From positions 1 to 57,191 of the IMG/VR virus record IMGVR_UViG_3300044724_009593: DNA of 57,191 bases. One strand, 5' to 3'. This DNA is from a virus. Lineage: Duplodnaviria > Caudoviricetes. Under the pieces are notes generated by a model, which did not search any database, was not told the origin of the DNA, and worked only from the letters and a program-made list of their open reading frames with translations. Position numbers and translations under genes: made by a program. This document shows, piece by piece, positions 224 through 52,656 of this stretch; positions within the stretch are counted from its first letter, which is position 1, and each line of letters begins with the position of its first letter.

Positions 224-244
224 AATTTTCTCCTTGTCAAGTAT

Positions 245-376: not shown

Positions 377-384
377 TTTTTCCT

Positions 385-699: not shown

Positions 700-702
700 A
701 AG

Positions 703-879: not shown

Positions 880-880
880 T

Positions 881-1174: not shown

Positions 1175-1181
1175 TTTTTCC

Positions 1182-2524: not shown

Positions 2525-2534
2525 TTTTTTCCTT

Positions 2535-4832: not shown

Positions 4833-4865
4833 ATAAGTCCTTTTTATTGATTTTATTTATATTTT

Positions 4866-6949: not shown

Positions 6950-6999
6950 GTGTTTCTCCTACGCTTTTATTATGTATTTAGCGATTCCAATGTATAGTC

Positions 7000-7680
7000 T
7001 TATGAAAATTTTTTATAATATTGATAAACTCTGTTGTACCATTCGTTCCTCCATTCTTTATATTCATGTGGCCAAATGTCAAATTGTTGATACTCCCCCT
7101 CTCTACTGCACATAAAGATATGGCCTTCGCGTATGTCAGTACCATAAATTTCATTATGTGCTTCTGCATATGCAACTAGCTGTAAAAAATAATCTTCTAT
7201 CCATTCTATTTTTTTTGGTTTATTTGTTTGTTTAAAGTCCATAATAGCAGGATTATTTTTATATGTACCAACTAAATCAGTTGTACCTGCATACATAGAT
7301 GGCATATACAACGCAACTTCGCTACCCCAAATTTCGACATCATTTAAGGCTTTTTCTCTTATTACATCGGCCATTTTATGCGCCTGTTGTGCGTAAGGAT
7401 TAGAACCTGCCTTAGGCCAGACACTACTTTCGATGTAATTTTCAAGATATTTGTGCATCCTAGTGCCAATGCCTGCAGCTTCATTTGTAATTTCTAGTGC
7501 TTTTTCTTCTCCTACACGTTGTCGCCATTTAATTAAATGTGTATTGTCTTTTGTTGAGTTTAAGATTGTTGTTACACTTGCTACAGCATTACCATCTGGT
7601 GTTAGATATAATCGTTTGCCGTTTACTTGTTTGCGTGAGATTGGTGTATAATTATACTTTTTAACTAAGAGGCTCATCAT
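7000..7680 (-). CDS. PD-(D/E)XK exonuclease (Cas4/Exo5-like); start reassigned to about 7680
   Basis: SVTTIL, GTRMH, AGTTD, DFKQT, QLVAYA motifs. Confidence 0.88.
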   Translation of the reverse strand: MMSLLVKKYNYTPISRKQVNGKRLYLTPDGNAVASVTTILNSTKDNTHLIKWRQRVGEEKALEITNEAAGIGTRMHKYLENYIESSVWPKAGSNPYAQQAHKMADVIREKALNDVEIWGSEVALYMPSMYAGTTDLVGTYKNNPAIMDFKQTNKPKKIEWIEDYFLQLVAYAEAHNEIYGTDIREGHIFMCSREGEYQQFDIWPHEYKEWRNEWYNRVYQYYKKFS

Positions 7681-8002
7681 CCTCTTCATTAAAATAATAA
7701 TCTTGATACATAAATGGATCGTGTTGATAGAAAGGATCAACAGAGCTGTTTGGATCATCTTGAGCAAGAATATTAGTAACTTCGGGTACAAAATGCATTA
7801 ACATGCCTTCTACACCCTGCTTCAATGTGTACATGCTGCCTGCACAACCACTGCATGCTCCACTAAGCATTAATTCAACAGTGCCATTGTCAAAGCTTAC
7901 AAAGTCTATATGTCCGCCATGTTCTGCTACTGCTGGTTGTACATAATCTTCTAATGCTTCTTTTATTGCGGTAACTATTTCTTTATTTGTTCTTTCAGTC
8001 AT
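7661..8002 (-). CDS. nfuA: NifU C-terminal/NfuA-type Fe-S cluster carrier
   Basis: VQPAVAEHGGHI and GACSGC..S..TLKQGVE motifs. Confidence 0.9.
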   Translation of the reverse strand: MTERTNKEIVTAIKEALEDYVQPAVAEHGGHIDFVSFDNGTVELMLSGACSGCAGSMYTLKQGVEGMLMHFVPEVTNILAQDDPNSSVDPFYQHDPFMYQDYYFNEEDDEPLS

Positions 8003-20643: not shown

Positions 20644-21339
20644 TTACCTTTCTAAGTAAAGCACACCTGTTAACATGTATTTATAAAGTTTCTCTTTATG
20701 ATGGTATGATCCATGTAAATTATTACAAGGAAATACATGACAACTTCCATGGATAAAAGGTAGAATTTTATAAGTTTTTAGACCAGCTAGTTCTTTATCG
20801 TTACCAACATGTCCGTCTAAACCTAAGTCTAAGTCAGGCTTTGTATATTCTCTTGTATTGTTTTCTATACTATACAAAATAGGAATACTGACCAGCTTAT
20901 CAATATCTACAAGATGAAACATATTATGTGTTTTTTTAATGTAGAAATCATTTGTAGGTAAATTTTTATTATAATAAATTGTATCATTACCATCTGAACA
21001 ACATATGTTAAATCTTGTAATTACTTTTCCATGTTTACTTAGCCCGTTATCACTGTCAGTATGCGGAGGGTGTCCTCCTTCTTTAACCTTTTTTAGATAT
21101 GCATTATATTTTACGTTTAATGGCAATTTTAAAATAGAAAATAAATTTTTAAAATCCGAAAAATAATCTTGTATCAAATCCTGTGTTGCAATTGGATAAT
21201 GACTGTTATTTAAATCAAATTCGCTATGGTTACTATTGTTTATAATAGGTATGCAACCGTCACTATATTTGCTAATTATATTTTCAAAATCAAACTTTAT
21301 AAAATCTTGCAAAAAAATTTTAGTTTTATTTTCATGCAT
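20644..21339 (-). CDS. Divergent 2OG-Fe(II) oxygenase-like protein
   Basis: PHTDSD and FPCNNLHGS. Confidence 0.6.
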   Translation of the reverse strand: MHENKTKIFLQDFIKFDFENIISKYSDGCIPIINNSNHSEFDLNNSHYPIATQDLIQDYFSDFKNLFSILKLPLNVKYNAYLKKVKEGGHPPHTDSDNGLSKHGKVITRFNICCSDGNDTIYYNKNLPTNDFYIKKTHNMFHLVDIDKLVSIPILYSIENNTREYTKPDLDLGLDGHVGNDKELAGLKTYKILPFIHGSCHVFPCNNLHGSYHHKEKLYKYMLTGVLYLER

Positions 21340-22480
21340 AATAATTATCTATAATAGCTTTGAAGTCTACCTTTCTTTTCTCTTTCACTAGATCACAATA
21401 ATCAAAAAATGTGTTTTTGTAATGTTCACCAATGAAGTCTTCTTGTGAGAAGACATTTGATAAGGTATGATAATCAGCATTATTCATCAAATTTTTAACG
21501 TCATTTAAGATTTTTTGCTTCAAATTTTTATCTAGTATAGCTGGATGTACATAGCTGTTAGATTTATTAACTCCTGTTGCATAGCTATCTGTTATTGCAT
21601 ATCTAAAATTATAATAGATCCCCAATGTTTCGGCCCATGATATAAAATCTTTCAAACCTAACGCACTAAATGAACTAATCGTATAAACTAAGTTAAGCTC
21701 TATTGTTTTATAATTAGTAGCCAACTCATTAAATTTATCAATTATTTTTGTTACTTTATCCCATTTCGCAGGATATCTTACAAAATTAAATACATCATTT
21801 GTGCCATCTATACTAAGATTAATAACACTGCGTTTAAATTTAGGTAAAACCATTTCTAGTGTTTTATTAAAGATTGTACCATTTGTAAAGATATGTAGCT
21901 GTATTGTTTGCAGCTCTTTTGATTTTGTATTGACATAATTAAAAAAATCCCTATGTATCAACGGTTCGCCTCCATACAATGTAATTTTTTTTGCAGTATT
22001 CTTATTATATGCAATAAAATCATCGAATATTTTTTTTACTGCAATTAAATCTAATTTTTCTTCAGGATAATATACAGCATTTTTTTGATATCTGCTAAAA
22101 GCGTCAACATCTTCATTCCATTTACTACTAAAATGAGCGGAACACATAATACATTTCAAATTACATGTAGTGCTAAGTTTTAATTGTAATTCGGACGGAA
22201 ATCTTCTTGGAATTTTAATTACACCTTTTGAGTTAATTGTATCTTGTCTAAGGCTTCTTATATTATTAGATTCTTGTGCAAAACAAAAACTACAATTTTG
22301 TGGTGGTTTAGCATTAGGTAATAACATTTGTTGTCTTAGACTGTTCATTTTTTTAGAATTCCAAAAAGCTACCCAAGACTCTTCTTTATTTTCATAGGTA
22401 TCCCCTGATACACAACATAATCGCGCATTATTTCCTTGCACTTCTAGATTAAAAAATGGTATAGGACAATAATTTTTCAT
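21332..22480 (-). CDS. Radical SAM enzyme with N-terminal twitch/SPASM-like Cys cluster
   Basis: CNLKCIMC motif, GGEP, SIDG; N-terminal YCPIPF..LCC..NCSFC. Confidence 0.9.
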   Translation of the reverse strand: MKNYCPIPFFNLEVQGNNARLCCVSGDTYENKEESWVAFWNSKKMNSLRQQMLLPNAKPPQNCSFCFAQESNNIRSLRQDTINSKGVIKIPRRFPSELQLKLSTTCNLKCIMCSAHFSSKWNEDVDAFSRYQKNAVYYPEEKLDLIAVKKIFDDFIAYNKNTAKKITLYGGEPLIHRDFFNYVNTKSKELQTIQLHIFTNGTIFNKTLEMVLPKFKRSVINLSIDGTNDVFNFVRYPAKWDKVTKIIDKFNELATNYKTIELNLVYTISSFSALGLKDFISWAETLGIYYNFRYAITDSYATGVNKSNSYVHPAILDKNLKQKILNDVKNLMNNADYHTLSNVFSQEDFIGEHYKNTFFDYCDLVKEKRKVDFKAIIDNYYA

Positions 22481-23385: not shown

Positions 23386-24247
23386 TTTTCAAAAGATTTT
23401 CTAGATTATCTATAATAATTTTAGTATCAATAGAGACTGAATTGATTTTTTCACTTTTTAAATTGATATTGTTATGACCTAACGAAATAGGCGAAGTAAC
23501 ACTCCACAAAACAATACCATTAATTGATTTTTCAAAATTTGCTGCTGCATGAGGTACCATACTATCAATACTAACAAACGCAGCGGCATTTTTAATCGTT
23601 TCTATTAAATTTAGGATATTTTCATTTTCTACTTGTCCTACTCTCTCATAAGCAAAAATTTCTTTATCATAAAAATCTACTGAGGTTCGGACAATAATGA
23701 CCCAATAATTCCGGAAATGCTCAAGGATGCTACAAATGATTTCTTTAGAGTTATCGCAAGATCTAGGATCATTTACAGCCCTATTACCTTCAACAGTGCT
23801 ACCGCCTTGTAATTGAATAATAATATAAGGAGATTTTATTGTGTTTTTTAATTTTTCTACGTAATTTTTATTTAAATCTGTAGTCTTAACTTCATTTAAA
23901 ATAGTCTGTGGATCAACTGATAATTTTAATTCTAATTGCTCATATAATGATTCATAAAAATGGACATCATGATACCAATACGAACTAAGATAAGGTTCAG
24001 TGTAAACTATATTATCAAAATAATCCTTATAGTCTGATGGTACTTTTTGAGACGGGCCTGGTATAGGGATAACATTTTGCACAGCTCTATGATTTTTAAA
24101 CAACTCCATCCATATAGCTGGGCACATAATACTAATTTTTCTTCTATCTTTTTTTGCCAAAGCACTCACTGCACCTGAAAACAAGATGTTTTTGCCTAAA
24201 CCTCCTTGGATTCCATAAAGAGTTGTTTTTGGTATTTCATTATTCAT
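23378..24247 (-). CDS. Glycosyltransferase, GT9/heptosyltransferase-like
   Basis: GGLGKNIL N-terminal motif; IIIQLQGG; FVSIDSMVPHAAA. Confidence 0.75.
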   Translation of the reverse strand: MNNEIPKTTLYGIQGGLGKNILFSGAVSALAKKDRRKISIMCPAIWMELFKNHRAVQNVIPIPGPSQKVPSDYKDYFDNIVYTEPYLSSYWYHDVHFYESLYEQLELKLSVDPQTILNEVKTTDLNKNYVEKLKNTIKSPYIIIQLQGGSTVEGNRAVNDPRSCDNSKEIICSILEHFRNYWVIIVRTSVDFYDKEIFAYERVGQVENENILNLIETIKNAAAFVSIDSMVPHAAANFEKSINGIVLWSVTSPISLGHNNINLKSEKINSVSIDTKIIIDNLENLLKNG

Positions 24248-24906
24248 CTAAATTTAGGTCCTTGTATCCAGCATATAAAACCAAATCTATTACCCCGAGT
24301 AATTTCGGTTACTTCGTGCTCTAAAAAGGTAGGAAATATTAAAATACTTCCTTTTTCTTTTTGATGAGAAGGTTGTTGTATTTTATCAGTTTGACCTAAC
24401 AATGTTTCTCCACCGTCATAATCGGACTCGTCTGATAATTGTATGATTACTGTAAGTTTTCTATCATAATAATTGTTATCCCAATGATTTGTATCATCGT
24501 GTGGCTGGAACCAATCGCCTGGTCTATACCACATTAATTGTTTGCTCATTATTCCATAGCTAATATCTAAGAAAAAATTGTTAACATTTGCATAAAATGT
24601 ATAGTCTAAAATTTTTTTATCTAACCAGTCTATTTTGTCTGGTAAGAACATATGTTTTCTAGACCTTTTTTCTCTAAAGTACTTAAACCAAGGATTATTT
24701 TCATCAACTTGATTTTCAACGAAACATTCATCTTCGTTCCACATATCTAGTAACAGCTTACACTCATTGTCATCAAATGCATGCCTCTCAAAATAATACG
24801 GTTTCCTGACATCGTTCATTTGATCGTAATTATGATGTTCTAAAATATCTTTCGAAGCTGCTAATTCTAAAGGATGTTGTATCATGTTAACCTTAAAAAA
24901 ATACAA
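24244..24906 (-). CDS. 2OG-Fe(II) oxygenase, prolyl-4-hydroxylase/PKHD type
   Basis: HDD...RKLTVIIQLS..DYDGGE..FPTFLEHEVTEITRGNR..GPKFR; complete triad. Confidence 0.9.
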   Translation of the reverse strand: MYFFKVNMIQHPLELAASKDILEHHNYDQMNDVRKPYYFERHAFDDNECKLLLDMWNEDECFVENQVDENNPWFKYFREKRSRKHMFLPDKIDWLDKKILDYTFYANVNNFFLDISYGIMSKQLMWYRPGDWFQPHDDTNHWDNNYYDRKLTVIIQLSDESDYDGGETLLGQTDKIQQPSHQKEKGSILIFPTFLEHEVTEITRGNRFGFICWIQGPKFR

Positions 24907-25552
24907 TAAAGCTATATCTTGTTTTTATTTTTGGATGGAAAAATTTTACCATATGTTCTCTAGCAGGATACAAAGATTGTTGTGTACCTAGGAATATAGC
25001 ACTCGTTTTAGGTGTCCTAAATAATGGCATCCATTTTCCTGTTGAATCATCTCTAGATACTAATCCAGGATGTGTTGAATTGACCAAAGAAAAAGTTTTA
25101 TTATCTTTGTGCATACCCATGTGTGGGTAAGACTTTTTGCTAGTAGCTGTAGGATTTCTTTTATAATATTTTAAGAAATTGTAACTTAAAGATGCTGTAT
25201 TTACATCCTTATTGATTCCTAAACCTTCGGCTAATCCGCTGAAAATTTCTACAACTGTTTCAAAGTAGACATCAATTAATTTATTAAAGTCGTCTTTGCC
25301 ATCGGTTAGCTCAAAATTGTAAGATACTGTGGTAGTCTTATCATTTTCAAAATTATAAAAATTTCTTTGAATTTGCGCTTCTGTTTTAACTCTATCGAGA
25401 TGTAATTTATCCCAATTCAATAAACTAGGCTGGTCTGGTATGTCAAAGTTATCATAAAGTTTAGGAGCCAAATTTAAAATGTCCATAATAATTTCATCTT
25501 GTTCGTAAAAACAATAACTATACTTTTTAATGAAAGCAAGCATGTCATTCAT
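24893..25552 (-). CDS. 2OG-Fe(II) oxygenase, IPNS/ACCO-like
   Basis: HKD...PGL...AREHMV...RYS. Confidence 0.75.
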   Translation of the reverse strand: MNDMLAFIKKYSYCFYEQDEIIMDILNLAPKLYDNFDIPDQPSLLNWDKLHLDRVKTEAQIQRNFYNFENDKTTTVSYNFELTDGKDDFNKLIDVYFETVVEIFSGLAEGLGINKDVNTASLSYNFLKYYKRNPTATSKKSYPHMGMHKDNKTFSLVNSTHPGLVSRDDSTGKWMPLFRTPKTSAIFLGTQQSLYPAREHMVKFFHPKIKTRYSFIVFF

Positions 25553-26148
25553 CTAAATTTAGGTCCTGTAGCAAAAGCAAGCAAAATTTTCTTATTACCC
25601 TTTGTTATGGGTTCCACACTATATCGGATATATGATGGAAAAATTGTAACAGTACCTTTAGTTAGAAATTTCTTAGGTATAGGAACGGTGTTCATATAAC
25701 ATCCATATGCACCACCGTTGTAGTCAGTATAATTTTCTAATTCAATCAATATTGTTAATTTTTTATCAAAGGGCAAAGGATTAAACCACCAATCGCAATC
25801 TTCATGAAAATCCCACTCATCATTTAATCCAAAATGTAAAATGTTACATTGATAAATCTTATTAATATCTAGTAAAAAATTACTATCATTGGCGTCTTTA
25901 ACTAATTTCCATATCGGATCTATTATCCATGAATGGCTTATATCTTTATATTGATCAAAAATGTTGATAATATCCATTGAAGATCTATTATTATGATATC
26001 CAGTATATTTTTTTGTATATTTGTTAATTATTAAATCACAAATTTGCGGAGAAAAATAATTTTGATATTGTACCCAAGGAAATTTTTTGTAACTTATTAC
26101 ATGATGACTATTGTTTTTTCCAAAAATTGGTTCTTGTTGTTCAGTCAT
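25549..26148 (-). CDS. PKHD-type 2OG-Fe(II) oxygenase-like, distal His replaced by Tyr
   Basis: HED, KKLT, DYNGG, FPSYIRYSVEPITKG, GPKFR. Confidence 0.8.
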   Translation of the reverse strand: MTEQQEPIFGKNNSHHVISYKKFPWVQYQNYFSPQICDLIINKYTKKYTGYHNNRSSMDIINIFDQYKDISHSWIIDPIWKLVKDANDSNFLLDINKIYQCNILHFGLNDEWDFHEDCDWWFNPLPFDKKLTILIELENYTDYNGGAYGCYMNTVPIPKKFLTKGTVTIFPSYIRYSVEPITKGNKKILLAFATGPKFR

Positions 26149-27485
26149 AATTCAGGCCTAACTTGCTTTCCGTCTATTTTTACTACTTTTTGTCCAGTTA
26201 ACATTTTGATTGCGGCTTTGAAATGACCCATATTATATGCATATTCATTCCAACAGGTTTGAGCAAATTCTTGTCCTTTTAAGAACATACACGATCCTTG
26301 ACATAGTTGTACAACTGGACAATGACTACATTCTTGTCTCCAAGACCAATGCTGGCTAGACTTAATACGTACATCCTCAAGGCTATCTAAATGTCCTGCA
26401 AGATGATCTCTTTCTAATCCTACATTTTGGCAAGTTAAAACATTGCCTTTCAAATCAACTGCAAGCTCGTCATCTCTATCCATTCCGCATTTTTGTCCAA
26501 CCACTTGCCAAGGTTTTTTATAAAGGAGTGTGGCAAAAAATTCATTAAATTTATCAACAGATGAAATAACATTTAACAATGGTTTTGTGCCTTCTATACA
26601 ACCATTGTAAACGCTATCTTCAAATTCTTGTAAAAATGTATAGTCAAACTTACCTGTCTTTTCATTTGTCGCAGTCTTAATATCATAGGCTTCGACAACT
26701 CCCTCTGCGTTTAATGGCACATTAGGATCATTCATTTTATCTTTAAACCATTGAACGGTAGCTTCAAAGTCCTTGTTAGCTTTTGTCCAAACAATAGTAA
26801 AACTGAATCCTAATTTTCCTTTTTTGCTTTTATCAATAAGTTGTTTTACCAATGCGTATTTTTTTGGATTATCAAGTGGATCTGGACCTCTTAAGTGATA
26901 TCCTGGTCCATCGTGGCTCATAGCTATTCCGAAATTATATTTTTCAAAAAAGTCTACTTTTTCTTGTGTTAATAAACTTCCATTTGTAACAATTGTAAAT
27001 TCTAAGTCATCACCCCATTTTTCACGTAAAATAGGAGTCAAGCGTTTAATTTGATTCCAATACAATAATGGTTCTCCTCCCCAAAATTCTACACTATGAC
27101 ATGTATCTTCTGGGAACCATTCGTCTAATTTTTCTATGAAAGTTTCTAAATCAGTTTGATCACTTTTTATTGCTTCTGGAACAAAACTACTTTGGCTACA
27201 ATATTCACATTTATAATTACATTTCAATCCAAGTTGTATTTTTAATCTTCCAACTTCTCTAGTTTTTGTACCAGGATTGAAAAATGGATGGATAGGATCA
27301 ATTGGCTGCATATGAAAATAGTCTTTCACTCCATAGACTTCCATGTCATTAATTTTCTTAATACCAATAGGATTTTTTTGATATACATCACTCCTATGTT
27401 CATCTACTAATTTAGATTGATGCGGCTTGTAGTAAAGTTTTTTACCATTTTCAAGGTGTAAAGTATATTCTAAATCTTTATCCAT
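26145..27485 (-). CDS. Radical SAM/SPASM-domain enzyme (peptide/protein maturase type)
   Basis: CNYKCEYC, FWGGEP, SHDG; SPASM KCG..LTCQ..CSHCPVVQLCQGSC..C. Confidence 0.92.
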   Translation of the reverse strand: MDKDLEYTLHLENGKKLYYKPHQSKLVDEHRSDVYQKNPIGIKKINDMEVYGVKDYFHMQPIDPIHPFFNPGTKTREVGRLKIQLGLKCNYKCEYCSQSSFVPEAIKSDQTDLETFIEKLDEWFPEDTCHSVEFWGGEPLLYWNQIKRLTPILREKWGDDLEFTIVTNGSLLTQEKVDFFEKYNFGIAMSHDGPGYHLRGPDPLDNPKKYALVKQLIDKSKKGKLGFSFTIVWTKANKDFEATVQWFKDKMNDPNVPLNAEGVVEAYDIKTATNEKTGKFDYTFLQEFEDSVYNGCIEGTKPLLNVISSVDKFNEFFATLLYKKPWQVVGQKCGMDRDDELAVDLKGNVLTCQNVGLERDHLAGHLDSLEDVRIKSSQHWSWRQECSHCPVVQLCQGSCMFLKGQEFAQTCWNEYAYNMGHFKAAIKMLTGQKVVKIDGKQVRPEL

Positions 27486-28671
27486 TATTTTTCCTTAGTT
27501 TTATATTATTAGCTAGATATCTTTTTCCAAATGCGTTAAAAAACTTATTGTATCCATATTTACCATAGAATATAGGCCACCCTTTTTTTTCTAGTTTTTT
27601 TAAATACCAGTCTTGAAATTGGGTAACATATTGCCAATATGGAGAATCTCTCCTAGAGCTTATACAATAGGCACCTTCAACATACGAAATATGGTTTTCA
27701 ATCATATTTCTAAAACCAAAATTATATATTGATTGAAGCTTGTTACTTATTGTAAAATTATTATCTTTAAGTAATTTACAAAAAGATTCTAACATAAAAG
27801 ATATAATGGTTAATGTTGTGCTTTCCAATGGTTCTATAAATACCGCAGCGCCTCCTATTTTCAAACTGTTTCTATTCCACGGATTAGGATTATAACGCGA
27901 AGGAAAACGTACTTCGTATAAATTTTCTAAACCATACCATTTATACATTTCTTTCTTTGCTTCTTCAATTGAAAGATATTTGGTTGAAAACACTCGCCCT
28001 ACTCCTAGTTGATCTTGTAATGGAATCTCCCAACTCCATCCAACTGAATGTGCAAAAGTTTGTGTAAAATATCTTTTTTCTGAAAAAGGTATATGCCCTG
28101 CCAAAGCGTAATCATTAATAATAGCACGAGATGCTCTTATCCTAGAATCTTGCCCTCGGAAACCTCTGCAATCAACAACAAATTCATGTAGATTTGCAAG
28201 CAAAGAAGTATCTTTAACATGTTGATTAAAAATGTTTATATCTAATGTTTCACATTTTTGCAATAATAAGGGTTGTAATTTAGTGCTTTGTAAGTGATAT
28301 GCATAAAGAGCAGACGAAGGTAAGTTATCTTCGTTGTAAGTAAAAATTTTATTTTCACAATCGATATCAGATGTTAAATGTTCATGACAAAAGGGAAAGA
28401 TCCATTCGTGACCTTTATAATTCCAATTATTATGTTTTACATAAAATTTATAAGTTGCATTGCAATGGCTTATCCAGTCCTTGTTATCTCCAAAAACTGT
28501 ATCAAAATATTTTGACAAGTACGGTTGGGTAGATTCCCCAACGATCAAAGGTTGCAGATTAGGATCACGATAAATTTCAACCTCTAAATCTTTACAAACA
28601 GACTTTATAAAAGTTGCAGCCATTAATCCTGCTGTTCCAGAGCCAACAACCTTTATTTTTTTAATTTCCAT
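27478..28671 (-). CDS. Tryptophan-halogenase-like flavoprotein
   Basis: GSGTAG, VGEST, ATYK (catalytic Lys position), WSWEIP, FIEPLEST. Confidence 0.88.
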   Translation of the reverse strand: MEIKKIKVVGSGTAGLMAATFIKSVCKDLEVEIYRDPNLQPLIVGESTQPYLSKYFDTVFGDNKDWISHCNATYKFYVKHNNWNYKGHEWIFPFCHEHLTSDIDCENKIFTYNEDNLPSSALYAYHLQSTKLQPLLLQKCETLDINIFNQHVKDTSLLANLHEFVVDCRGFRGQDSRIRASRAIINDYALAGHIPFSEKRYFTQTFAHSVGWSWEIPLQDQLGVGRVFSTKYLSIEEAKKEMYKWYGLENLYEVRFPSRYNPNPWNRNSLKIGGAAVFIEPLESTTLTIISFMLESFCKLLKDNNFTISNKLQSIYNFGFRNMIENHISYVEGAYCISSRRDSPYWQYVTQFQDWYLKKLEKKGWPIFYGKYGYNKFFNAFGKRYLANNIKLRKNNG

Positions 28672-28672
28672 T

Positions 28673-28885
28673 TTAGATAGGATTGTTTATTTCATATACA
28701 GAAGAAAGATTTCCCTTACCATAAAGGTACACAATCTCTTTTCCTAAACTATATCCTCTTACAGGCGTTATCCTTGATTTATCAATCTTAAGTGGTAATT
28801 CTTTTAATTCCTGCTTTATGTCTTTTCTTTCTTCATTGCTTTTTGTTTTAATTAAAGTCCTTCTAAAAAGTATAAATGAGTTCAT
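28673..28885 (-). CDS. Small hypothetical protein
   Basis: 70 aa between the two halogenase-like genes. Confidence 0.55.
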   Translation of the reverse strand: MNSFILFRRTLIKTKSNEERKDIKQELKELPLKIDKSRITPVRGYSLGKEIVYLYGKGNLSSVYEINNPI

Positions 28886-30626
28886 ATTTCTTCAGATATT
28901 CTTTCTGTGTTAAAGTATTTGGTGATAAATTATTTTTTATAGCCAAAAAATAGCCTTGTAATGTTTTTAATTCATCTTTATCTATTGAGTCTTCAAGATT
29001 TTCGTTTCTAGTCTCAATATCGTAAAAATCAATACCATCCAAGACGAACAACCAATTTTGTAGGGTTAGTACAGATAAGTCAGGGTTATGAGGTTGATAA
29101 TGAACAGGACTTCTATACCATTGACTTAACCGTAAAGAGATACTTTGATCAGTATAATCGTGTAAATCATAAGCAGCATTAAAGTCTTCTTCTGATAAAA
29201 GTTCAACTAATTGTCTCTTATCAATCCAAAATTCTGTATCATCCTTATTAGTGATAAAGTGTAGAAAAATAAAGTTAGCCAGCTCATTGGTTGCATCGGC
29301 AACATCGTTGTTATAAGCTAATCGATGATTAAACATAATATCATCATCCAAATCTAGCATTTCCCAATCATCAAAACTCTCAACCTCTTCCAAGATGTCA
29401 ACCTGCTCATTATTATTATCTTTATCATTATCTAATGATTTTGCTTGGATTTGCTTAAAATTTTTAAGGACAGCAAAAAGTTGTGTTATCATAAATCCTA
29501 GGCTTGTTGCTTCTAATGGCTCTAAAAAACTTTGACTCAATCCAATAGCAATAACATTACCAAACCATGGTTGATCTAAATACCCAGCTTCGAATTTGAT
29601 TTCTTTTTCTGTTTCAATAGCATTACCAAATATAGACTCTAATTCTTTTTTTGCTTCGTGTACTGAACAATAATTATCATCAAAAACGTAACCGTATCCA
29701 GTTTTATGCTGTAATGGTATTTTCCAAAGCCATCCATATTTTAATGCAATTGCTTCTGTCCAAGCTTCATCAAGTGTTTCTGAAACAGAAAACGGTATTG
29801 CGGTATTTGTAGTCAGATAATGATAGGGTATATACACTGGGCTTACTAGAGAGTCTATAGAACTATATTTTTGCATTATAATTCTACTAAAGCCTGTACA
29901 ATCAAAAATAAAATCCACATCATGATATTGATATTCGTCTTCAACTCCTGTTATAATAGTGGTTGTATTGTAATCTATATCAACTTCTGTATCTGTAATG
30001 TGTTCTTCATAATATTTTACGCCAAGTTCGATACTTTTATTTTTAAAAAATTCACTTGTTTTATCTGCATCAAAATGTAAACTAATACCAGTTTGTTGAG
30101 AATAGTTTGTAAATTTTATAATTTCGTCAATATCTCTATCGGGAATTTGCTCCATAAACGGATTGACAAATTTTGAGTAATCTCCAGCAACGAAACATCC
30201 ATTTAAATAATCGCTCTCAAGTTGATTGTTTAATTTTATTTTTTCAGTCTCGGTTCCTTGGATTCCATCATCTGCATAACTCTCTAGTTCTTTTTCAGTC
30301 TTGTCAGGCCAATATATGTCTTCAATTTTTAATAAACTACCTGTAAAAGGATGCACATATTCAGATTTTTTTTGATTCCAGTTTTTAAATTTTACACCTA
30401 ATTTTACTGTAGCTCCAGTTTTCTGGAAAAACTCTTTCAAATCTATACCACATAGTTTGAAAAAATGCAAAAATATAGGCAATCCTCCTTCTCCTGTAAT
30501 AAGTTTGTCAACTTCTTTACTACAAAATAAAGAAATTTCTAAATTAGGAAAGTTTTTTTTCATCCAATATGCTGTAATCCAGCCACTCAATCCTCCGCCG
30601 GCAACGGCAATTTTTTTAATTTCCAT
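28863..30626 (-). CDS. Tryptophan-halogenase-like flavoprotein with acidic insertions
   Basis: GGGLSG, ATVKLG, FDCTGF, WLWKIP, FLEPLEATS. Confidence 0.9.
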   Translation of the reverse strand: MEIKKIAVAGGGLSGWITAYWMKKNFPNLEISLFCSKEVDKLITGEGGLPIFLHFFKLCGIDLKEFFQKTGATVKLGVKFKNWNQKKSEYVHPFTGSLLKIEDIYWPDKTEKELESYADDGIQGTETEKIKLNNQLESDYLNGCFVAGDYSKFVNPFMEQIPDRDIDEIIKFTNYSQQTGISLHFDADKTSEFFKNKSIELGVKYYEEHITDTEVDIDYNTTTIITGVEDEYQYHDVDFIFDCTGFSRIIMQKYSSIDSLVSPVYIPYHYLTTNTAIPFSVSETLDEAWTEAIALKYGWLWKIPLQHKTGYGYVFDDNYCSVHEAKKELESIFGNAIETEKEIKFEAGYLDQPWFGNVIAIGLSQSFLEPLEATSLGFMITQLFAVLKNFKQIQAKSLDNDKDNNNEQVDILEEVESFDDWEMLDLDDDIMFNHRLAYNNDVADATNELANFIFLHFITNKDDTEFWIDKRQLVELLSEEDFNAAYDLHDYTDQSISLRLSQWYRSPVHYQPHNPDLSVLTLQNWLFVLDGIDFYDIETRNENLEDSIDKDELKTLQGYFLAIKNNLSPNTLTQKEYLKKYELIYTF

Positions 30627-31252
30627 TATACATTCTCTATGTCGCTATAATCTTTGGGATTTTGTTTCATTATATTAAGGTTTTCGCTTTGATCTCGTGA
30701 TGTTACATCTTTTGTCAAATAAACATATTCTTCATTATTCCAAGGAAGGTCCGGCTCATTAAAATTCAGCCTTATTAGATAAATTAAAAATTGTGCTTCT
30801 CTAGCAGAATTGAAAAATATTTCTTCTTTTCCTTTCAACACCACCACATGATTTAATTCTAATGTAGAATCATTATATACAAATGACATACTTGGTATTT
30901 TATTGGTATCTTCGGTATAACCTCCACAATAAAAGGCACACATTTCATTTGTTGTTTTATTGAGGGTATTTACCTTTTTATTGCTCCAGGCAGCAGCAGT
31001 ATCGACTTCTAGCGTTATACTTGTAAGTGTAGCATCTGCGTAAGTAGTTTTCACTGCACTATAGATTTTTTGTAATAAAAGTAAAATATTAGAATAATTA
31101 GTTATTCCAATTTTTTTTGGTAGGTTAATTCGACTTATTTGTAATTCTTGCCGCGCATTAATAACATGTACAAGGCTCTGATGTTGTCTATGACAAAAGT
31201 TTATTATTTTTCGTTTATCTGCTTCAGTTAAGATATCATTTAAAAAATGCAT
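30626..31252 (-). CDS. Hypothetical protein, possibly decayed DSBH/2OG-oxygenase fold
   Basis: 208 aa; N-terminus similar to neighbouring oxygenases; no metal triad. Confidence 0.5.
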   Translation of the reverse strand: MHFLNDILTEADKRKIINFCHRQHQSLVHVINARQELQISRINLPKKIGITNYSNILLLLQKIYSAVKTTYADATLTSITLEVDTAAAWSNKKVNTLNKTTNEMCAFYCGGYTEDTNKIPSMSFVYNDSTLELNHVVVLKGKEEIFFNSAREAQFLIYLIRLNFNEPDLPWNNEEYVYLTKDVTSRDQSENLNIMKQNPKDYSDIENV

Positions 31253-31254
31253 TT

Positions 31255-32919
31255 TTATCCTAAAAATAATTTTCTAAAAGCATAAAAATTTAAAGGAGCT
31301 CTAAAAAGATATTTTTTTCTTTCTCTTTCATAATAATAAGCCTTGGCAAAAGTATTTAGGGCAAGATTACTTTTTTTAAGTTTATTTTTTTGATACCTGA
31401 TTAACCATCTATCCCAAGCATTGGTAATACAATCAAAATCATCATTGTTTGAATTGAGTGCATTAACATTGAATGTAGATGCATTTAGATCAGGCAGTGT
31501 ATGTTCTGATTCAACAAATGTATCTTGATACTGTTGTAAAAAGTTGCTAGAAACACCTTGAAACATTTCTAAATTGATATTAGATATATCAGTTATAATC
31601 TTCTGGTAATGATGCTGTAAACTACCTAAAATTATACTTCCATAAAACGATGCATCTTCTAAACATTTAGTTAGTGTACTTGGTAATGATACCGCCATAG
31701 TGACAAGCACATTGATATCATGAAAAGAAAAAGGTTCAAGGGCATATTTTTCTAAAGAAAAAAGCAGATAATTACTATAAGGTAAATCTGAGCTATTAAT
31801 ATCGTTTGATGCAAAATTAGATATAATAGTTCTAGGCCGTAAAGTGTTGATATCTTTGTAAGGTAAATCTAGTGATGTTGTAGTTTTTTGGAAAAAAATA
31901 TTTTTCCTGCTAGTTAATTTAGGATCTGAAAATGTTATACAATCATTTCCAATAGTAACAGTAAATTTGTTTTTATTAAAATTTTCTTGCACATCCGGTT
32001 CAAAATAGATTCTATTACAAATATTGTTTGTATGAACAAAAGGTGGTAATAGGGCTAGTAAACTTTCATTATCTCCAAGAGTATCAATTACAAAATCAAT
32101 TTTTTGTCCATTAATGGTAATCGTTGTGAAATTGTCATCTTGTCCAAAATTGATTTCTTCGTTAGTATTAGTTGATGTTATTATATCTGTAAGATTATCG
32201 GTATAATAGTTTTCTAATGGTATTTTAGAGTCTAATAATAAATTTAAACCTTCGATATCATGATTCCAAACTAAATGATCTATTGAATTGTTTAAGTTAG
32301 TTCTTGTCTTGCCTGCTATAAATTGATTTGATAGCCTCTGTATAAGCTCTATTCCATTTAAATCATCAGTATCTATATCTGAATCATAATGTGGAAAATC
32401 GTCGCCTGTTTGTAAAAATAAAAATAAATTTTCTAATAAATCTAAATCATTGTCAATTAGATAATGACAATATGATTGCAATGCTTCTGCTATAGAGATT
32501 TCAGATATTTTTGCTAAATCGCCTAGAACAGTTATCGTGGGTTGATTTTGATTTACTGTATTTCGCAAATTATTGCCTACTATATTTTGCATGTATTCAA
32601 ACACTATATTTTCTATGCTACCTATGTTAGGTTCAGCAATCCTATACAGTGGTTTATCAATTAGATTTAGATATTCTATTGCTAAACCAAAGGTGGTAGT
32701 AGTTGCATTTAAATATTCTTGGATATTAATTCCAACTTGGCGAAGCAATTTAATGAAAGCTAACCCTGTTACAGGTTTTTCTAACCCTGTGTGAAAATGA
32801 TTTTGAAAAGGTTGATTATTGGTAAAAATTGTAATATTCCAAGAAGGATTTTCTTTTTTAATTAAAAGATAAGAAAGTTTGCTTTCGATAGTATTACCAA
32901 TTATCGCAATATGTTTCAT
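31255..32919 (-). CDS. Degenerate tryptophan-halogenase-like protein
   Basis: HIAIIGN, ATTTFGLAI, DFVIDTLG, ALEPF in halogenase order, but GxGxxG, catalytic Lys and WxWxIP are absent. Confidence 0.6.
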   Translation of the reverse strand: MKHIAIIGNTIESKLSYLLIKKENPSWNITIFTNNQPFQNHFHTGLEKPVTGLAFIKLLRQVGINIQEYLNATTTTFGLAIEYLNLIDKPLYRIAEPNIGSIENIVFEYMQNIVGNNLRNTVNQNQPTITVLGDLAKISEISIAEALQSYCHYLIDNDLDLLENLFLFLQTGDDFPHYDSDIDTDDLNGIELIQRLSNQFIAGKTRTNLNNSIDHLVWNHDIEGLNLLLDSKIPLENYYTDNLTDIITSTNTNEEINFGQDDNFTTITINGQKIDFVIDTLGDNESLLALLPPFVHTNNICNRIYFEPDVQENFNKNKFTVTIGNDCITFSDPKLTSRKNIFFQKTTTSLDLPYKDINTLRPRTIISNFASNDINSSDLPYSNYLLFSLEKYALEPFSFHDINVLVTMAVSLPSTLTKCLEDASFYGSIILGSLQHHYQKIITDISNINLEMFQGVSSNFLQQYQDTFVESEHTLPDLNASTFNVNALNSNNDDFDCITNAWDRWLIRYQKNKLKKSNLALNTFAKAYYYERERKKYLFRAPLNFYAFRKLFLG

Positions 32920-33461
32920 ATAAATTTATTTCCAGAACATGTAGCTGTAATATAACGTACAGGTTTGTCTGTTTTTACTTGCGAGATTGAATATCTAGTA
33001 AAGGCATCGATAATGACTGCACTACCTTTTTTCTTATAAAAAATATCATCTATTGGCTCACTATAACCGTCGCTGGTATGCAAATAAATTAAACCCCCAG
33101 TAGAATCATCTAATTTTTCATTAACATTTAGTATTGCAAATAACTTCCTATCAGTGAAATTATGATAAAAATGATTTAATTCTCTTCTTTCTGTGAGATA
33201 TCCACCTTTAGGAATATCTTCTGTTCTTATACTATCAGTAAGACTTATGTCATATCCCCAATTTAATTGATTACTTCTTACAAAATAATAGTAAATAGCG
33301 TCTTCAAGATCGGAAACATAGCCTCCTCCATAAAATTTTGTAGCTACACCTAGTTTATCTGTAGTGCTTCCTGGTTTGACTTCTGCATCTTCTAATATTT
33401 TTTCGGCTGTTTCGATATAAGCTGCAAAAGCACCTGGAAAAACTATATGCGATTTTATCAT
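32916..33461 (-). CDS. Degenerate PKHD-type oxygenase-like protein
   Basis: DRKLFAIL, GG, KKGSAVII..RYSI, GNKFI; lacks HxD and distal His. Confidence 0.6.
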   Translation of the reverse strand: MIKSHIVFPGAFAAYIETAEKILEDAEVKPGSTTDKLGVATKFYGGGYVSDLEDAIYYYFVRSNQLNWGYDISLTDSIRTEDIPKGGYLTERRELNHFYHNFTDRKLFAILNVNEKLDDSTGGLIYLHTSDGYSEPIDDIFYKKKGSAVIIDAFTRYSISQVKTDKPVRYITATCSGNKFI

Positions 33462-33464
33462 ATT

Positions 33465-34049
33465 TTACCTAAATTTTGGACCAATAATATGGCAATGTAA
33501 AAGTTGTCTTAGAGAAATTTTAGATGACTCAATTGAATAAGTTAAAAAACTAGGAAATATTAAAACCGATCCTTTTTTACCTGCAACAACTTGATTGTCT
33601 TGGTCGAAATGTATTTTTGCAACCGGAATATTAGGGTCATCGTTGTTAATAAAGGCAATAACAGACAATTTCCTATCATTTGGTTCGATTGAATATCGCA
33701 GTAAATCTTCATGCTTTCCGTATGAATAACCAGGCTTAAATGTTAGTAGAATCGGAGGCTTTTCAACTCCCCAAATATTATATCCAAAAAGTCTAGCATT
33801 TGCATCTAAAACATAATTCATTACCTTCGTTTCATAAAATTCTATTTCATCAGATAATTCTGTAATTTCGTAAGTAAAAAAATTATAACTTTTATCAATA
33901 TAATTTGTCGTAACTTCATTATCTTGATTTGTAAGTGTAATACTTGATCCTATTTGCTTTTCTAATATTTGATCACACTCAGCATCTGTAAAAACCCTGT
34001 CGTAAATTTTATAAATTGGTTTAACATTTTCAAAATTATTTAATATCAT
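33465..34049 (-). CDS. PKHD-type 2OG-Fe(II) oxygenase-like, distal His replaced by Tyr
   Basis: HED, DRKLSVI, KKGSVLIFPSFLTYSI, GPKFR. Confidence 0.8.
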   Translation of the reverse strand: MILNNFENVKPIYKIYDRVFTDAECDQILEKQIGSSITLTNQDNEVTTNYIDKSYNFFTYEITELSDEIEFYETKVMNYVLDANARLFGYNIWGVEKPPILLTFKPGYSYGKHEDLLRYSIEPNDRKLSVIAFINNDDPNIPVAKIHFDQDNQVVAGKKGSVLIFPSFLTYSIESSKISLRQLLHCHIIGPKFR

Positions 34050-34786
34050 AATTCACAAGAATTGTCATTGTTATTTTGTAGATCTTCTACTTTTTTGTTA
34101 AGTTGTTTTATTGACTCAAGTAATACTGGTATCATTTGTATATATGAAACAGCTTTATACTTTTCATTTTCAATGTTTACATATTCTATCATTTCAGGAA
34201 ATATATCTTCAATTTCATCTGCTAAAAAGCCTATCTGTTCTAAAGGTATGTCTTCGTCAATTTTACCTTCCATTAACTCAGTTACGTTTAATCCTTTATC
34301 ATTGTATTTAAACATAACACTTTGGATTTGGTTTATTTTATCGAGTACATTTGGTCCTAAACCTTCAATATCTGTCTTAAGTTTTTCGTCGCTCCAACAT
34401 TTACATTTGCAGACGCACTTGCACTTACATTTGCATTTACAGATGCATTTGCATTTGCAATTACATTTACATTTACATTTACATTTGCATTTACATTTGC
34501 ATTTACATTTGCATTTACAGGCACATTTGCATTTACAATTACAATTGGTGCTATACCTTACAGTAAGCGATCCTCCACTAGTGCCAGGAGTAGTTTCAAA
34601 TTGATAAACTTTCCTTGCAGTTGAACCAGTATATTTGCTGTCACCAGTTGCTACAAAACTTATACTGTTTAATGTAGTTCTACGACTATTTACAGTTCCT
34701 GGCAAAACTGCTGTATCGAAGCTTGCACCATCAGCTTTGGTTCCTGCTTCTAAGTCAACTGTTTTATTTCCAATTTTTATTGCCAT
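34046..34786 (-). CDS. Mini tail-fibre-like protein: short N-terminus, (Cys-X)24-Cys tract, C-terminal S74 intramolecular chaperone
   Basis: Residues 82-130 alternate Cys; followed by WSDEKLKTDIE..GFLADEIE..PEMI..VSYIQMIPVLLESIKQL coiled coil. Confidence 0.88.
   Translation of the reverse strand: MAIKIGNKTVDLEAGTKADGASFDTAVLPGTVNSRRTTLNSISFVATGDSKYTGSTARKVYQFETTPGTSGGSLTVRYSTNCNCKCKCACKCKCKCKCKCKCKCKCKCNCKCKCICKCKCKCKCVCKCKCWSDEKLKTDIEGLGPNVLDKINQIQSVMFKYNDKGLNVTELMEGKIDEDIPLEQIGFLADEIEDIFPEMIEYVNIENEKYKAVSYIQMIPVLLESIKQLNKKVEDLQNNNDNSCEL
34397..34543 (-). repeat. 6-bp coding repeat giving 25 Cys alternating with 19 Lys, 2 Asn, Ala, Ile, Val
   Basis: 147 nt = 49 codons; TGT/TGC and AAA/AAG both used. 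Confidence 0.95.
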
Positions 34787-35096: not shown

Positions 35097-35507
35097 TCAA
35101 GAACAGATCATACACACAGAAAAATTGTCTCCCCAATTAGGAAAAGCAACCCTATTAAGTGCTGCAACATTGTTTCGCCAAAATCCATATTCACCTTGAC
35201 ATTCACTATACGTACATGTAGCTGTGCGATTATAATTATAAATGATATAAATATCTCCGTTAAACGTTCCTTCGTCCCACGTGAAAGTACAAGTTACATT
35301 AGCAGAACAATTGGCTTGATTGCTCGTTGCTCTATAATACGCTATGCTACAGCATGTACCTAAGGCAGTGTTTGTGCCACTATTCACAATCACTCGGTTG
35401 ATTGCTTTTGAATTAAAGTACCAATCAGAAGTAACAAATGGTGCAATTGCATCCCACTGGAGGCCTTCTCCATCTATTACCACAAGATTATTAATTTTAA
35501 AAGCCAT
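35097..35507 (-). CDS. Small Cys-rich fibre-like protein (MAFKINN start; start reassigned to 35507)
   Basis: TAATG overlap with upstream stop; 8 Cys. Confidence 0.7.
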   Translation of the reverse strand: MAFKINNLVVIDGEGLQWDAIAPFVTSDWYFNSKAINRVIVNSGTNTALGTCCSIAYYRATSNQANCSANVTCTFTWDEGTFNGDIYIIYNYNRTATCTYSECQGEYGFWRNNVAALNRVAFPNWGDNFSVCMICS

Positions 35508-36595
35508 TACCCTACCTTTATAATTTTTGTTGCCCAATTACTGAAATGCTTAAAGCCTGCCTTTATTACCATTAGATCGTTTGGATCTAAGTCTAAAGCT
35601 CTAATCTTAAATTGTCCTTGACCATTTACTAAATTTATTTTACTTTTAGCTAAGTACCCATTATTGGTTTTAACATATAAGTCTGTATCGTAATCATATA
35701 GTGTAATACCATCTGATGCAGCAGTTGTAGATAAAGTAACATTTATTATGCCAACTTCATTAGGTTGCAACATACTAGGTCCGTCTAAAATAATGTGAGG
35801 AATAGGTAAAGTAGAATAATCCGTGAGCATTGTTGGTGCATGGGTCAGTGTATTTAAATCAACATCTCCAGAAACACCAAATCCGTGCATCATACTAATA
35901 TTACAATATAGGCTTGCAGCAGTAAAAGGCATAGTTTTTTCAAATAAAAATAAACTTAAAATCCTTTGTCGCCAAAATCTTGGTTTGCGTTTAACAATAT
36001 TGTTATCAACAGTTTCGATTTGTGGATCAGTCTGGAACTGGTTCATTCTATCGTGCCTATTCCAGTTTATTTTAGTGTTGTGAGTAAATGTAAATTGGTT
36101 ATATGGAATGTGCCAATTATGACCTGCAAAATTATAATCAAATGACCACAGCATACAATCTTTGTACTCTGGAATACATTCCTGATTAATACGTCTACCT
36201 TCATCTAAACTTTCTTGACTCAGAGCTGGTTCAGTAGCAAAATTATGTGTTGTATTCCTTGCAATAATACCTTCCGCAGCACGTTCAATTTGAGCTGCAC
36301 CTACAAATTTTAACCATTTCCCCTCTAACTCTGACGCTATTAAATCTCCAAGGACAATCGAATATACATCTTGGTCATCTTGAGAAAATTCTAATTCTAA
36401 CCGGTGTCTAGTTAGCAGTGGGTGATCACTAGAATCAATTAAGTTGAATGTATTAGCATCTACACCAGGAATATAATCTGGATCATTTACCAACACATCT
36501 TTAAACATCCTTACTGTTAGCATATCATCATCTATATCAACAATATAATGAATGGTGTCAAAAAATGTATATCTATACTGAAGTTGTTGTTCCAT
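35507..36595 (-). CDS. Hypothetical tail-associated protein with C-terminal Ig-like domain
   Basis: 362 aa; beta-rich C-terminus GYLAKSKINLVNGQGQFKIRALDL..KAGF; coupled to the fibre gene. Confidence 0.7.
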   Translation of the reverse strand: MEQQLQYRYTFFDTIHYIVDIDDDMLTVRMFKDVLVNDPDYIPGVDANTFNLIDSSDHPLLTRHRLELEFSQDDQDVYSIVLGDLIASELEGKWLKFVGAAQIERAAEGIIARNTTHNFATEPALSQESLDEGRRINQECIPEYKDCMLWSFDYNFAGHNWHIPYNQFTFTHNTKINWNRHDRMNQFQTDPQIETVDNNIVKRKPRFWRQRILSLFLFEKTMPFTAASLYCNISMMHGFGVSGDVDLNTLTHAPTMLTDYSTLPIPHIILDGPSMLQPNEVGIINVTLSTTAASDGITLYDYDTDLYVKTNNGYLAKSKINLVNGQGQFKIRALDLDPNDLMVIKAGFKHFSNWATKIIKVG

Positions 36596-49481: not shown

Positions 49482-49530
49482 AGCTTGTCCTTTTATTATT
49501 TCTTGTTTACATATTTATGTAAATAGCAGT

Positions 49531-51630: not shown

Positions 51631-51631
51631 A

Positions 51632-52069: not shown

Positions 52070-52097
52070 TTTATACTCCTATAAACTAATATTTAGC

Positions 52098-52655: not shown

Positions 52656-52656
52656 A

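Follow-up and report, generated by a model that had tools for sequence, protein, structure and literature searches.

The window analysed here, 57,191 nucleotides that make up positions 1 to 57,191 of the IMG/VR virus record IMGVR_UViG_3300044724_009593 (Duplodnaviria; Caudoviricetes), contains at 26145-27485 (minus strand) a gene for a radical S-adenosylmethionine (radical SAM) enzyme of the SPASM subfamily. Judging from its sequence family and its genomic company, this enzyme is probably a thioether-forming maturase of a virion protein encoded at 34046-34786. The enzyme class, an alternating Cys-X tract in that protein and a two-way genomic coupling between such tracts and the enzyme family are established. 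On the strength of the coupling, the C-terminal tract is likely the enzyme's substrate and, if it is, one or more Cys thioethers would on balance be the product. An initial annotation of this DNA had pointed to a Cys-rich fibre about 7 kb upstream as the substrate, and a 25-Cys tract, the sole such tract in the window, does lie 6.9 kb upstream (in the sense of transcription) of the enzyme start. No end repeats were found in the record and CheckV estimated its completeness at 20%, so the window represents only part of a large phage. The elements on which the argument turns are the following.

26145..27485, minus strand: radical SAM/SPASM enzyme of 446 amino acids (aa), identified by PF04055, phrog_1802, 3+7 invariant Cys, an AlphaFold2 model and fold matches.
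34046..34786, minus strand: proposed substrate, a 246-aa fibre-type pre-protein consisting of an 81-aa head, the Cys-X tract, W131 and an S74 domain (translation, Pfam).
34397..34543, minus strand: (Cys-X)24-Cys tract at residues 82-130, with 25 Cys and chiefly Lys for X; it opens N-CNC and runs C-N-C-K-C-K-C-A-C-K...
34544..34579, minus strand: pre-tract motif of the family type, residues 70-81 (TSGGSLTVRYSTN in part), with Asn immediately before the first Cys.
34049..34393, minus strand: S74 chaperone domain from S132, profile position 1 aligning with residue 132.

The reading frame at 26145-27485 is uninterrupted, and its product matches Pfam Radical_SAM (PF04055; E 1.3e-13, 52 bits, cutoff 29.5) and, in PHROG, phrog_1802 ('radical SAM domain-containing protein'; E 7.6e-57). 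In a family alignment of 29 sequences (A1, members 40-83% identical), the cysteines of the CxxxCxxC motif, C89, C93 and C96, are unchanged in 29/29 sequences, and these positions are Cys in 93 of 94 representatives. Seven further Cys of the SPASM type are invariant in A1 (C333, C352, C386, C389, C395, C399 and C411), with the spacing C..C..CxxCx5Cx3C..C. Across the 94 representatives, ten columns are Cys in 92-94 sequences and every other column is below 30% Cys, so that the intact CxxxCxxC and complete SPASM set read by the initial annotation from one sequence hold for the family. The CxxxCxxC motif and the score above the PF04055 cutoff place the protein in the radical SAM superfamily; the seven-Cys C-terminal motif, in a region that aligns with the SPASM domains of the anaerobic sulfatase-maturating enzyme (anSME) and of CteB, places it in the SPASM subfamily. 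From what is known of the family, we infer that the 3+7 Cys bind iron-sulfur (Fe-S) clusters. Since the radical SAM core begins near residue 80 both in the Pfam alignment and in the AlphaFold2 model, the N-terminal extension of about 80 aa, which had also been noticed at the outset, is genuine. In the model, residues 1-80 form short strands (7-11, 16-20, 25-27) and only two 4-residue helices, and structural alignments to TigE and to CteB, which bears a recognition element (RRE) for peptides that are made by the ribosome and modified after translation (RiPPs), begin at enzyme residue 1. The family amounts to 580 clusters at 50% identity and E<=1e-30; at E<=1e-10 there are 5987 clusters, a set that certainly includes other radical SAM families.

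In the tract protein, the Peptidase_S74 match covers residues 132-199 (profile positions 1-56; E 2.1e-11, 44.4 bits against a cutoff of 22), and it is therefore above the cutoff and begins at the Ser of the predicted cleavage site. We take S132 to be the putative self-cleavage site, as in other members of the S74 family, and after the predicted cleavage the mature protein would end in the tract plus W131. The tail-fibre PHROGs that match the protein do so via this C-terminal domain. Orthologues are present in three related loci (L002, L003 and L017), and in the resulting four-sequence clade alignment 24 of the 25 tract Cys are unchanged. The hexanucleotide repeat behind the tract is only 75-77% regular in the DNA, an irregularity due to mixed synonymous codons that would limit replication slippage; tract length nonetheless varies between 25 and 29 Cys across the four relatives. 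An antisense ORF (open reading frame) at 34062-34604 (plus strand, 180 aa, ...HLHLHLHLQ...) was rejected as a gene, being the mirror of the Cys-Lys repeat.

The coupling was examined in both directions. For the forward direction, loci were collected with the family profile (from 134 confirmed viral and 163 confirmed genomic stretches, 80 of each were used, together with 13 first loci and two cultured phages), and an enzyme was counted as a family member if it scored at least 330 bits to the A1 profile in six-frame segments, which was the case in 138 loci, the next scores being 232 bits or lower. Thirty-one loci holding unrelated radical SAM genes served as controls. Loci with 3 kb or more available upstream were grouped by identity. 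Of the resulting clusters, 75 of 97 (95% identity), 34 of 52 (70%) and 8 of 10 (50%) have an upstream tract of the form (C-x)3C or longer on the same strand; for the shorter CxCxC the figures were 88/97, 45/52 and 9/10, respectively. The distance from tract to enzyme has a median of 1359 nt (range 159-7049). Within a zone from -4 kb to +1.5 kb, again on the same strand, a tract of at least four Cys occurs in 88, and one of at least three Cys in 102, of the 117 loci with at least 2 kb upstream. Tracts of at least four Cys have a density of 0.15 per kb near the enzyme; it drops to 0.003 per kb over the remainder of these loci and to 0 in the 31 control loci, none of which has a CxCxCxC tract.

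Tract-bearing loci are found on all major branches of the enzyme tree (FastTree, midpoint-rooted), and the hosts of the tracts include, besides this jumbo-phage fragment, genome loci of Rhodobacteraceae, Burkholderiales and Bradyrhizobium and a cultured siphovirus, Achromobacter phage JWF. The closest relatives (L002, L003 and L017, with enzymes 63-67% identical) are syntenic with the window and carry Cys-Lys tracts of 25-29 Cys. In phage JWF the enzyme, 37% identical, is encoded two genes downstream of a tail-fibre gene, whose product reads ...RQN-CNCDCNCNCSC directly before a Hint domain; a tblastn search with this fibre retrieved only two related phages.

For the reverse direction, IMG/VR was scanned for DNA coding for NCNCNCNC, which rendered at least 121 stretches, 80 of which were fetched. 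Low-complexity noise in frames shorter than 60 aa, several of them in giant-virus bins, accounted for 28 of the 80, and 40 were frames of 90 aa or more in which the tract lies no more than 11 residues from the stop. Thirty-six of these 40 could be assessed, having at least 2 kb downstream, the other four having less than 0.8 kb. Of the 36 assessable ORFs ending in NCNCNCNC, 34 have a family enzyme downstream, seen either in the 2-kb flank or by a search of the whole record (313-459 bits, or a partial match at a contig end). The two misses are L207, whose record holds only distant radical SAM genes (62-91 bits), and L250, with none in its 2-kb flank. A more distant radical SAM gene (118-142 bits) was seen in the records of four shorter ORFs (67-82 aa) that end in the same way, and among seven frames of at least 90 aa with more than 11 residues after the match the enzyme was present in two (L189 and L191) and absent from four. 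The initial annotation had regarded homologues consistently lacking Cys-repeat neighbours as fatal to its proposal of the Cys-rich fibre as substrate; neighbours of this kind are, on the contrary, the rule in both directions, and the proposal gains support.

The 78 unique tracts have mostly four (34), five (22) or six (10) Cys, eight have 7-9, and the four with 25-29 all belong to the clade of the window. The X residues over the 78 tracts are Asn (173), Lys (72, mostly from the window clade), Ala (54), Asp (38), Arg (19) and Gln (13). In the unique pre-tract 24-mers, Asn occupies position -1 in 74 of 78; positions -2 to -4 are taken by aromatic residues and -5 by Arg, a pattern to which the ...GGSLTVRYSTN-CNC... 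of the window conforms. In 67 of the 78 unique cases the tract ends 0-4 residues from the stop. In JWF, L039, L044, L052, L057 and L147 a Hint domain comes next, its first Cys being the last Cys of the tract or lying shortly after it; in the window and in L017 the S74 chaperone comes next. Hint and S74 domains excise or cleave themselves, and since the tract is always succeeded by one of these domains or by a stop, the mature protein should end in it. By BLAST, the regions that precede the tract make up about ten unlinked groups, among them collagen-repeat, shufflon-like and cadherin-like proteins and mini-proteins of 77 aa, some in tandem; with so many unrelated scaffolds, the tract behaves as a portable tag. 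As for the remaining members of the module, Pfam was run on 102 of 142 neighbour ORFs, with L003, L017 and small ORFs left out. A 2-oxoglutarate (2OG)-Fe(II) oxygenase of about 200 aa (PF13759) is present in 10 of 33 scanned loci, or in about 15 of 36 by BLAST groups, the window clade having PF13640-type paralogues in its place, and other loci occasionally add a second radical SAM enzyme, a class-V aminotransferase of the cysteine-desulfurase type and an ATP-grasp protein. The aminotransferase of L052 (7906-9024; Pfam E 4.4e-28) lies between the Hint-bearing tract protein and the enzyme.

Fold and family comparisons bear on the chemistry. The AlphaFold2 model of the enzyme, built on A1, has a mean pLDDT (predicted local distance difference test) of 85.9 and a pTM (predicted template-modelling score) of 0.88, and fold matches were ranked by Foldseek and VIA-align. 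The top match is CteB (Z 22.0, 350 residues aligned, root-mean-square deviation (rmsd) 4.6; also Z 21.3). Next come anSME (PDB 4K36-4K39; Z 20.2-20.8, the best one with 317 residues aligned and rmsd 3.4), whose overlap spans enzyme residues 77-432 at 17-18% (VIA) or 20-21% (Foldseek) identity, and ChlB (Z 20.5-20.6), followed by TigE (Z 17.5), by viperins, SuiB and SkfB (about Z 14) and by PqqE (6C8V, Z 10.6). In sequence, anSME is the second-best PDB match of the enzyme, with 57 bits. The top NCBIfam matches are peptide-modifying SPASM maturases and anSME: PapB (NF047865) reaches 69.8 bits against a cutoff of 340 and gives the best full-length alignment (residues 81-400), the anSME model TIGR03942 56.6 against 349.45, the SCIFF maturase model TIGR03974, to which CteB belongs, 50.8 against 425, and the CrpC family model TIGR04463 35.9 against 525. 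The enzyme is, on these scores, neither a PapB-family ranthipeptide maturase nor a SCIFF maturase, and in the latter case no SCIFF-type peptide is present, even though the fold of CteB is the closest.

The initial annotation had disfavoured the anSME and PqqE roles for lack of partner genes, and the Pfam scans of 58 window ORFs (20 + 38) indeed revealed no sulfatase or pyrroloquinoline quinone (PQQ) genes. Both roles were rejected on further grounds as well, the second because no PqqE is among the best 25 of the 54 NCBIfam matches and the fold of 6C8V is a distant one, and the first because of the low score to the equivalog and of the cluster ligands. In profile alignments, the stretch that separates the first two SPASM Cys of anSME reads C-G-M-N-G-T-C-T-C, with a C-T-C that has no counterpart in the enzyme family or in CteB, both of which are devoid of Cys there; the enzyme family therefore has seven, not eight, candidate Cys ligands for two auxiliary clusters. 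In CteB, as described in PMC8326336, one SPASM cluster has an open coordination site that a substrate Cys can reach, whereas the clusters of anSME are fully ligated by Cys. The seven ligands, the gap shared with CteB and the precedent of an open site would favour a thioether-forming mechanism, to the extent of a hint.

The sequence of events that we propose is as follows. The pre-protein would consist of an adaptor head, a pre-tract strand ending in Asn, the alternating Cys-X tract and then the S74 chaperone, which would trimerise the fibre and afterwards cut itself off, leaving the tract as a free C-terminal tip. In the cytoplasm the enzyme would recognise the region of the pre-tract and tract, a thiolate of a tract Cys would coordinate the iron that the first auxiliary [4Fe-4S] cluster leaves open, and the 5'-deoxyadenosyl radical would take a hydrogen from a neighbouring residue, giving rise to a thioether of the sactionine or ranthionine type and possibly to several along the tract. 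The outcome would be a covalently stapled fibre tip insensitive to redox conditions.

The window encodes a ribonucleotide reductase, a PAAR protein, tail-spike and fibre proteins and an endolysin (PHROG, Pfam). The tract gene and the enzyme gene belong to a minus-strand row, from 34786 to about 18021, whose ORFs abut or overlap by a few bases and whose G+C content (0.27-0.31) is lower than that of most of the remaining window (0.35-0.41). A scan for promoters and terminators performed no better than shuffled sequences (115 promoter-like elements, 119 expected; 8 terminator-like, 5.7 expected), and cultured phages yielded no megablast match to a 20-kb part of the window. After the tract gene the row continues with two 2OG-oxygenase-like genes, three tryptophan-halogenase-like genes and the radical SAM/SPASM enzyme; beyond the latter there are three more oxygenase-like genes, uncharacterised ORFs and a radical SAM gene of the twitch type. 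These and other neighbours are listed below.

36573..41822, minus strand: 1749-aa fibre protein with its own S74 chaperone (Peptidase_S74 at residues 1642-1701), which heads the host-recognition gene block.
35507..36595, minus strand: beta-rich 362-aa partner of the module with a C-terminal immunoglobulin (Ig)-like domain of the intimin/invasin type (alignment A4; AlphaFold2 pLDDT 72.9).
33465..34049 and 32916..33461, minus strand: two 2OG-oxygenase-like paralogues with degenerate metal triads, directly after the tract gene (alignment A2).
27478..28671, 28863..30626 and 31255..32919, minus strand: three tryptophan-halogenase-like flavoprotein genes (Pfam Trp_halogenase E 1.7e-54 and 2.6e-69; the third without a Pfam match).
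25549..26148, minus strand: 2OG-oxygenase-like paralogue directly downstream of the enzyme, overlapping its stop by 4 nt; HxD kept, Tyr for the distal His (A2).
24244..24906, minus strand: 2OG-Fe(II) oxygenase with a full HxD...H (PF13640 E 3.6e-14; A2).
21332..22480, minus strand: second radical SAM enzyme of the row, assigned to the N-terminal-twitch type by NF033640 (212.6 bits, cutoff 170); L002, L003 and L017 conserve it.

The initial annotation described the surroundings of the enzyme as an island with many decayed paralogues. This holds in so far as only one of the four 2OG-oxygenase-like paralogues of the window (PF13640-type; A2) has a complete HxD...H triad, the other three not, and one halogenase-like protein has no Pfam match; it does not hold for the reading frames, since all ORFs of the row are intact. 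Moreover, the identical degenerate triads are kept in the L003 orthologues, which argues that these 'decayed' oxygenase copies are maintained rather than dying. The halogenase-like protein encoded at 31255-32919 has IGNTIES in place of the GxGxxG of its paralogues. The block 27478..32919, which on the same strand also comprises ORFs of 208 and 70 aa located between the tract gene and the enzyme, is syntenic in L002, L003 and L017.

The 362-aa partner looks structural, according to its model: residues 265-362 give Z 10-12 to the GH2 C-terminal domain and to intimin and invasin Ig domains. The ESM Atlas rendered no usable feature match for the protein. Its homologues, of about 275 aa, adjoin the tract protein in 24 of 37 representative loci. 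The products of the small neighbouring genes 35097-35537 (minus strand) and 34046-34786 begin alike, with MA(F/I)KI(N/G)N..., and proteins starting with MAFY, MAFR or MALK occur in L002 and L003; the common N-terminal motif suggests a shared docking head for interchangeable small fibre subunits. At 7661-8002 (minus strand) there is a gene for a 113-aa NifU-like protein (Pfam E 3.1e-23), a phage Fe-S scaffold or carrier that could plausibly supply the two radical SAM enzymes of the fibre row. The region 49471-52664 holds cellular-type genes (class I/II aminotransferase, DUF454, HNH endonuclease, AlgH-like) and has the highest G+C content of the window, 0.41.

Several observations weigh against a thioether maturase acting on the tract. 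The SPASM model of Pfam matches none of the 29 A1 members at E<=1, and neither does the PqqD/RRE model. All the NCBIfam equivalogs score far below their cutoffs, and with CteB, anSME and ChlB within about 1.5 Z of one another the fold cannot pick the chemistry. Co-occurrence counts such as the 75 of 97 clusters were de-replicated by identity clusters and ignore the kinship by descent among the loci, and 15 of the 117 loci have no CxCxC nearby. The window itself is atypical: between the tract gene and the enzyme there are eight genes and 6.9 kb, as compared with a median of 1.4 kb; its tract, with 25 Cys, is five times longer than the usual 4-6; and X is mostly Lys instead of the Asn, Asp or Ala found elsewhere, Asn preceding the first two Cys only. 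The activity of the enzyme may therefore be confined to the beginning of the tract, or the twitch-type radical SAM enzyme may share the job on the long Cys-Lys tract.

There are also lineages that depart from the pattern. The clade nearest to that of the window in the midpoint-rooted tree (L023, L041 and L055) has no upstream tract. In these loci a protein encoded just downstream of the enzyme (L023 11185-12594, L041 11227-12381, L055 11203-12390) carries GLFD-CDCAC-AAPPDY near its N-terminus and has an S74-like C-terminus, and in L023 a Hint/intein-like insert is located exactly between GLFD and CDCAC. In a bacterial clade (L099, L113, L115, L122 and L161, from Ramlibacter, Polaromonas and relatives) the enzyme belongs to a RiPP-type cluster (L115 6534-11311; L161 6252-11296): a 64-68-aa peptide is encoded directly upstream of it, and the cluster further contains an ATP-grasp protein and a YcaO-nitroreductase fusion (Pfam E 5e-38 and 3e-9). 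In four of the five loci the peptide carries one (D/N)-Cys and ends in a tail like ...SPLPQP; in L099 it has four Cys. Ralstonia phage RSP15 has just ...NCQCGN at the C-terminus of its side tail fibre. Finally, the case as a whole is made from genomic evidence.

With regard to other explanations, it can be the case, which we consider unlikely, that the tract is the substrate of a different chemistry, such as conversion of Cys to formylglycine as carried out by anSME, epimerisation or C-C links, with the tip becoming reactive or otherwise altered. The near-tie of anSME with CteB in fold and its rank among the PDB sequence matches speak for it, together with the fact that anSME works on whole proteins without an RRE, none having been detected with Pfam in the 29 members of the enzyme family, and the JWF homologue was deposited as 'anaerobic sulfatase-maturating enzyme'. 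Formylglycine in particular fits poorly: the target motif of sulfatases is C-x-P/A-x-R, which the tracts do not contain, no sulfatase was found among the 58 scanned ORFs, and, besides the low equivalog score, the family lacks the extra Cys required for full cluster ligation as described in PMC8326336. It is still less probable that the tract is a metal or Fe-S binding ladder at the fibre tip, the enzyme being directed to the conserved Asn, to a pre-tract aromatic residue or to another part of the fibre. Tips of T4-type fibres and of P2 spikes hold iron at His-x-His sites, to which such a ladder would be comparable. In a trimer the alternating Cys would come to lie along one face of a strand, the NifU-like scaffold is encoded in the window, L052 has its aminotransferase between the tract gene and the enzyme, and CrpA may bind metals according to its authors (PMC13692751). 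Nevertheless, the need of two radical SAM enzymes for clusters explains the Fe-S helper genes equally well, and metal binding alone leaves unexplained why a SPASM enzyme accompanies 34 of the 36 assessable C-terminal tracts.

A comparably low probability is given to mere association, in which the enzyme would modify a small molecule, a glycan precursor or another protein of the 16-kb row, and the tract would be unrelated to it. The enzyme does sit amid halogenase-like and oxygenase-like genes resembling a small-molecule or tailoring pathway, one bacterial clade of the family is found in YcaO clusters, and the host-recognition clusters of Pelagimyophages are reported to contain radical SAM cassettes that are gained and lost, with no function proposed for them (PMC7029224). 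In most loci, however, the module is minimal, comprising the tract protein, the Ig-like partner, often a 2OG oxygenase, and the enzyme, without halogenases or other pathway genes, and the coupling holds in both directions and across about ten unrelated tract-protein scaffolds.

The system would thus probably represent, as far as gene content and sequence can tell, a thioether-type SPASM maturase recruited to a virion protein with a portable C-terminal tag. A broader picture, to which we give a low probability, is that many proteobacterial phages and prophages, as well as this marine jumbo phage, possess a receptor-side fibre with a portable Asn-(Cys-X)n tail and a dedicated SPASM enzyme that would convert it into a thioether-laddered tip. 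In the window the tag might have grown to a 25-Cys polycationic Cys-Lys rod, further tailored by the co-transcribed oxygenase, by the three halogenase-like enzymes (perhaps on the terminal Trp) and by the second radical SAM enzyme. Our literature searches found no paper on radical SAM modification of a phage structural protein or on these Cys-X tracts, and enzymatic cross-linking of the RiPP type in a structural virus protein is undescribed in the literature that they reached. If the proposal is true, the host-recognition tips of phages would be chemically hardened or functionalised after translation, with consequences for structure prediction, proteomics and the engineering of receptor-binding proteins; chemistry of peptide antibiotics would be employed in virion building, and a short portable C-terminal tag together with a single enzyme would constitute a ready tool for protein stapling.

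Among known systems, anSME resembles the enzyme in fold and in acting, as the enzyme is proposed to do, on a protein substrate; it has no RRE, for which Pfam gave no match in the 29 A1 members either. It differs in the extra C-T-C pair that completes its cluster ligation, in its sulfatase partner and in its target motif. In the ranthipeptide systems CteB/CteA (SCIFF, thermocellin) and PapB/PapA (freyrasin), as in the system proposed here, a radical SAM/SPASM enzyme acts on a Cys-rich substrate. The enzyme nonetheless scores far under the cutoffs of both families and has no RRE detectable with Pfam. CteA and PapA are short leader-core peptides, whereas the proposed substrates here are folded virion proteins of 77 to about 620 aa, and the repeat here is strictly alternating C-X, in contrast to the CxxxD or the six Cys in 45 residues of the known systems. 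PapB is described as accepting a free C-terminal carboxylate as an acceptor determinant (PMC12373016), and by analogy this could explain the C-terminal position of the tract. In a streptococcal ranthipeptide, NxxcB links a Cys to the beta-carbon of the Asn located three residues upstream (PMC8326336). In an N-C-N-C arrangement each Cys from the second on likewise has Asn at -3, and the Asn at -1 of the tract is near-invariant; the likeness to NxxcB/NxxcA is confined to the motif, most X in the window tract being Lys, and the NxxcB model is not among the best 25 of the 54 NCBIfam matches of the enzyme.

The nearest precedents, by analogy, are cellular. They are CrpC/CrpA of Methanococcus voltae (2026) and QhpD/QhpC. 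CrpC has a predicted RRE and CrpA is built of 17-residue repeats with C-x-x-Q/D; theirs is a cellular archaeal system of undefined role, and the source paper makes no use of the word 'phage' (PMC13692751). What both pairs share with the system proposed here is that a SPASM radical SAM enzyme makes thioether links, described as ranthionines, on a protein with Cys repeats and not on a short peptide (PMC13692751).

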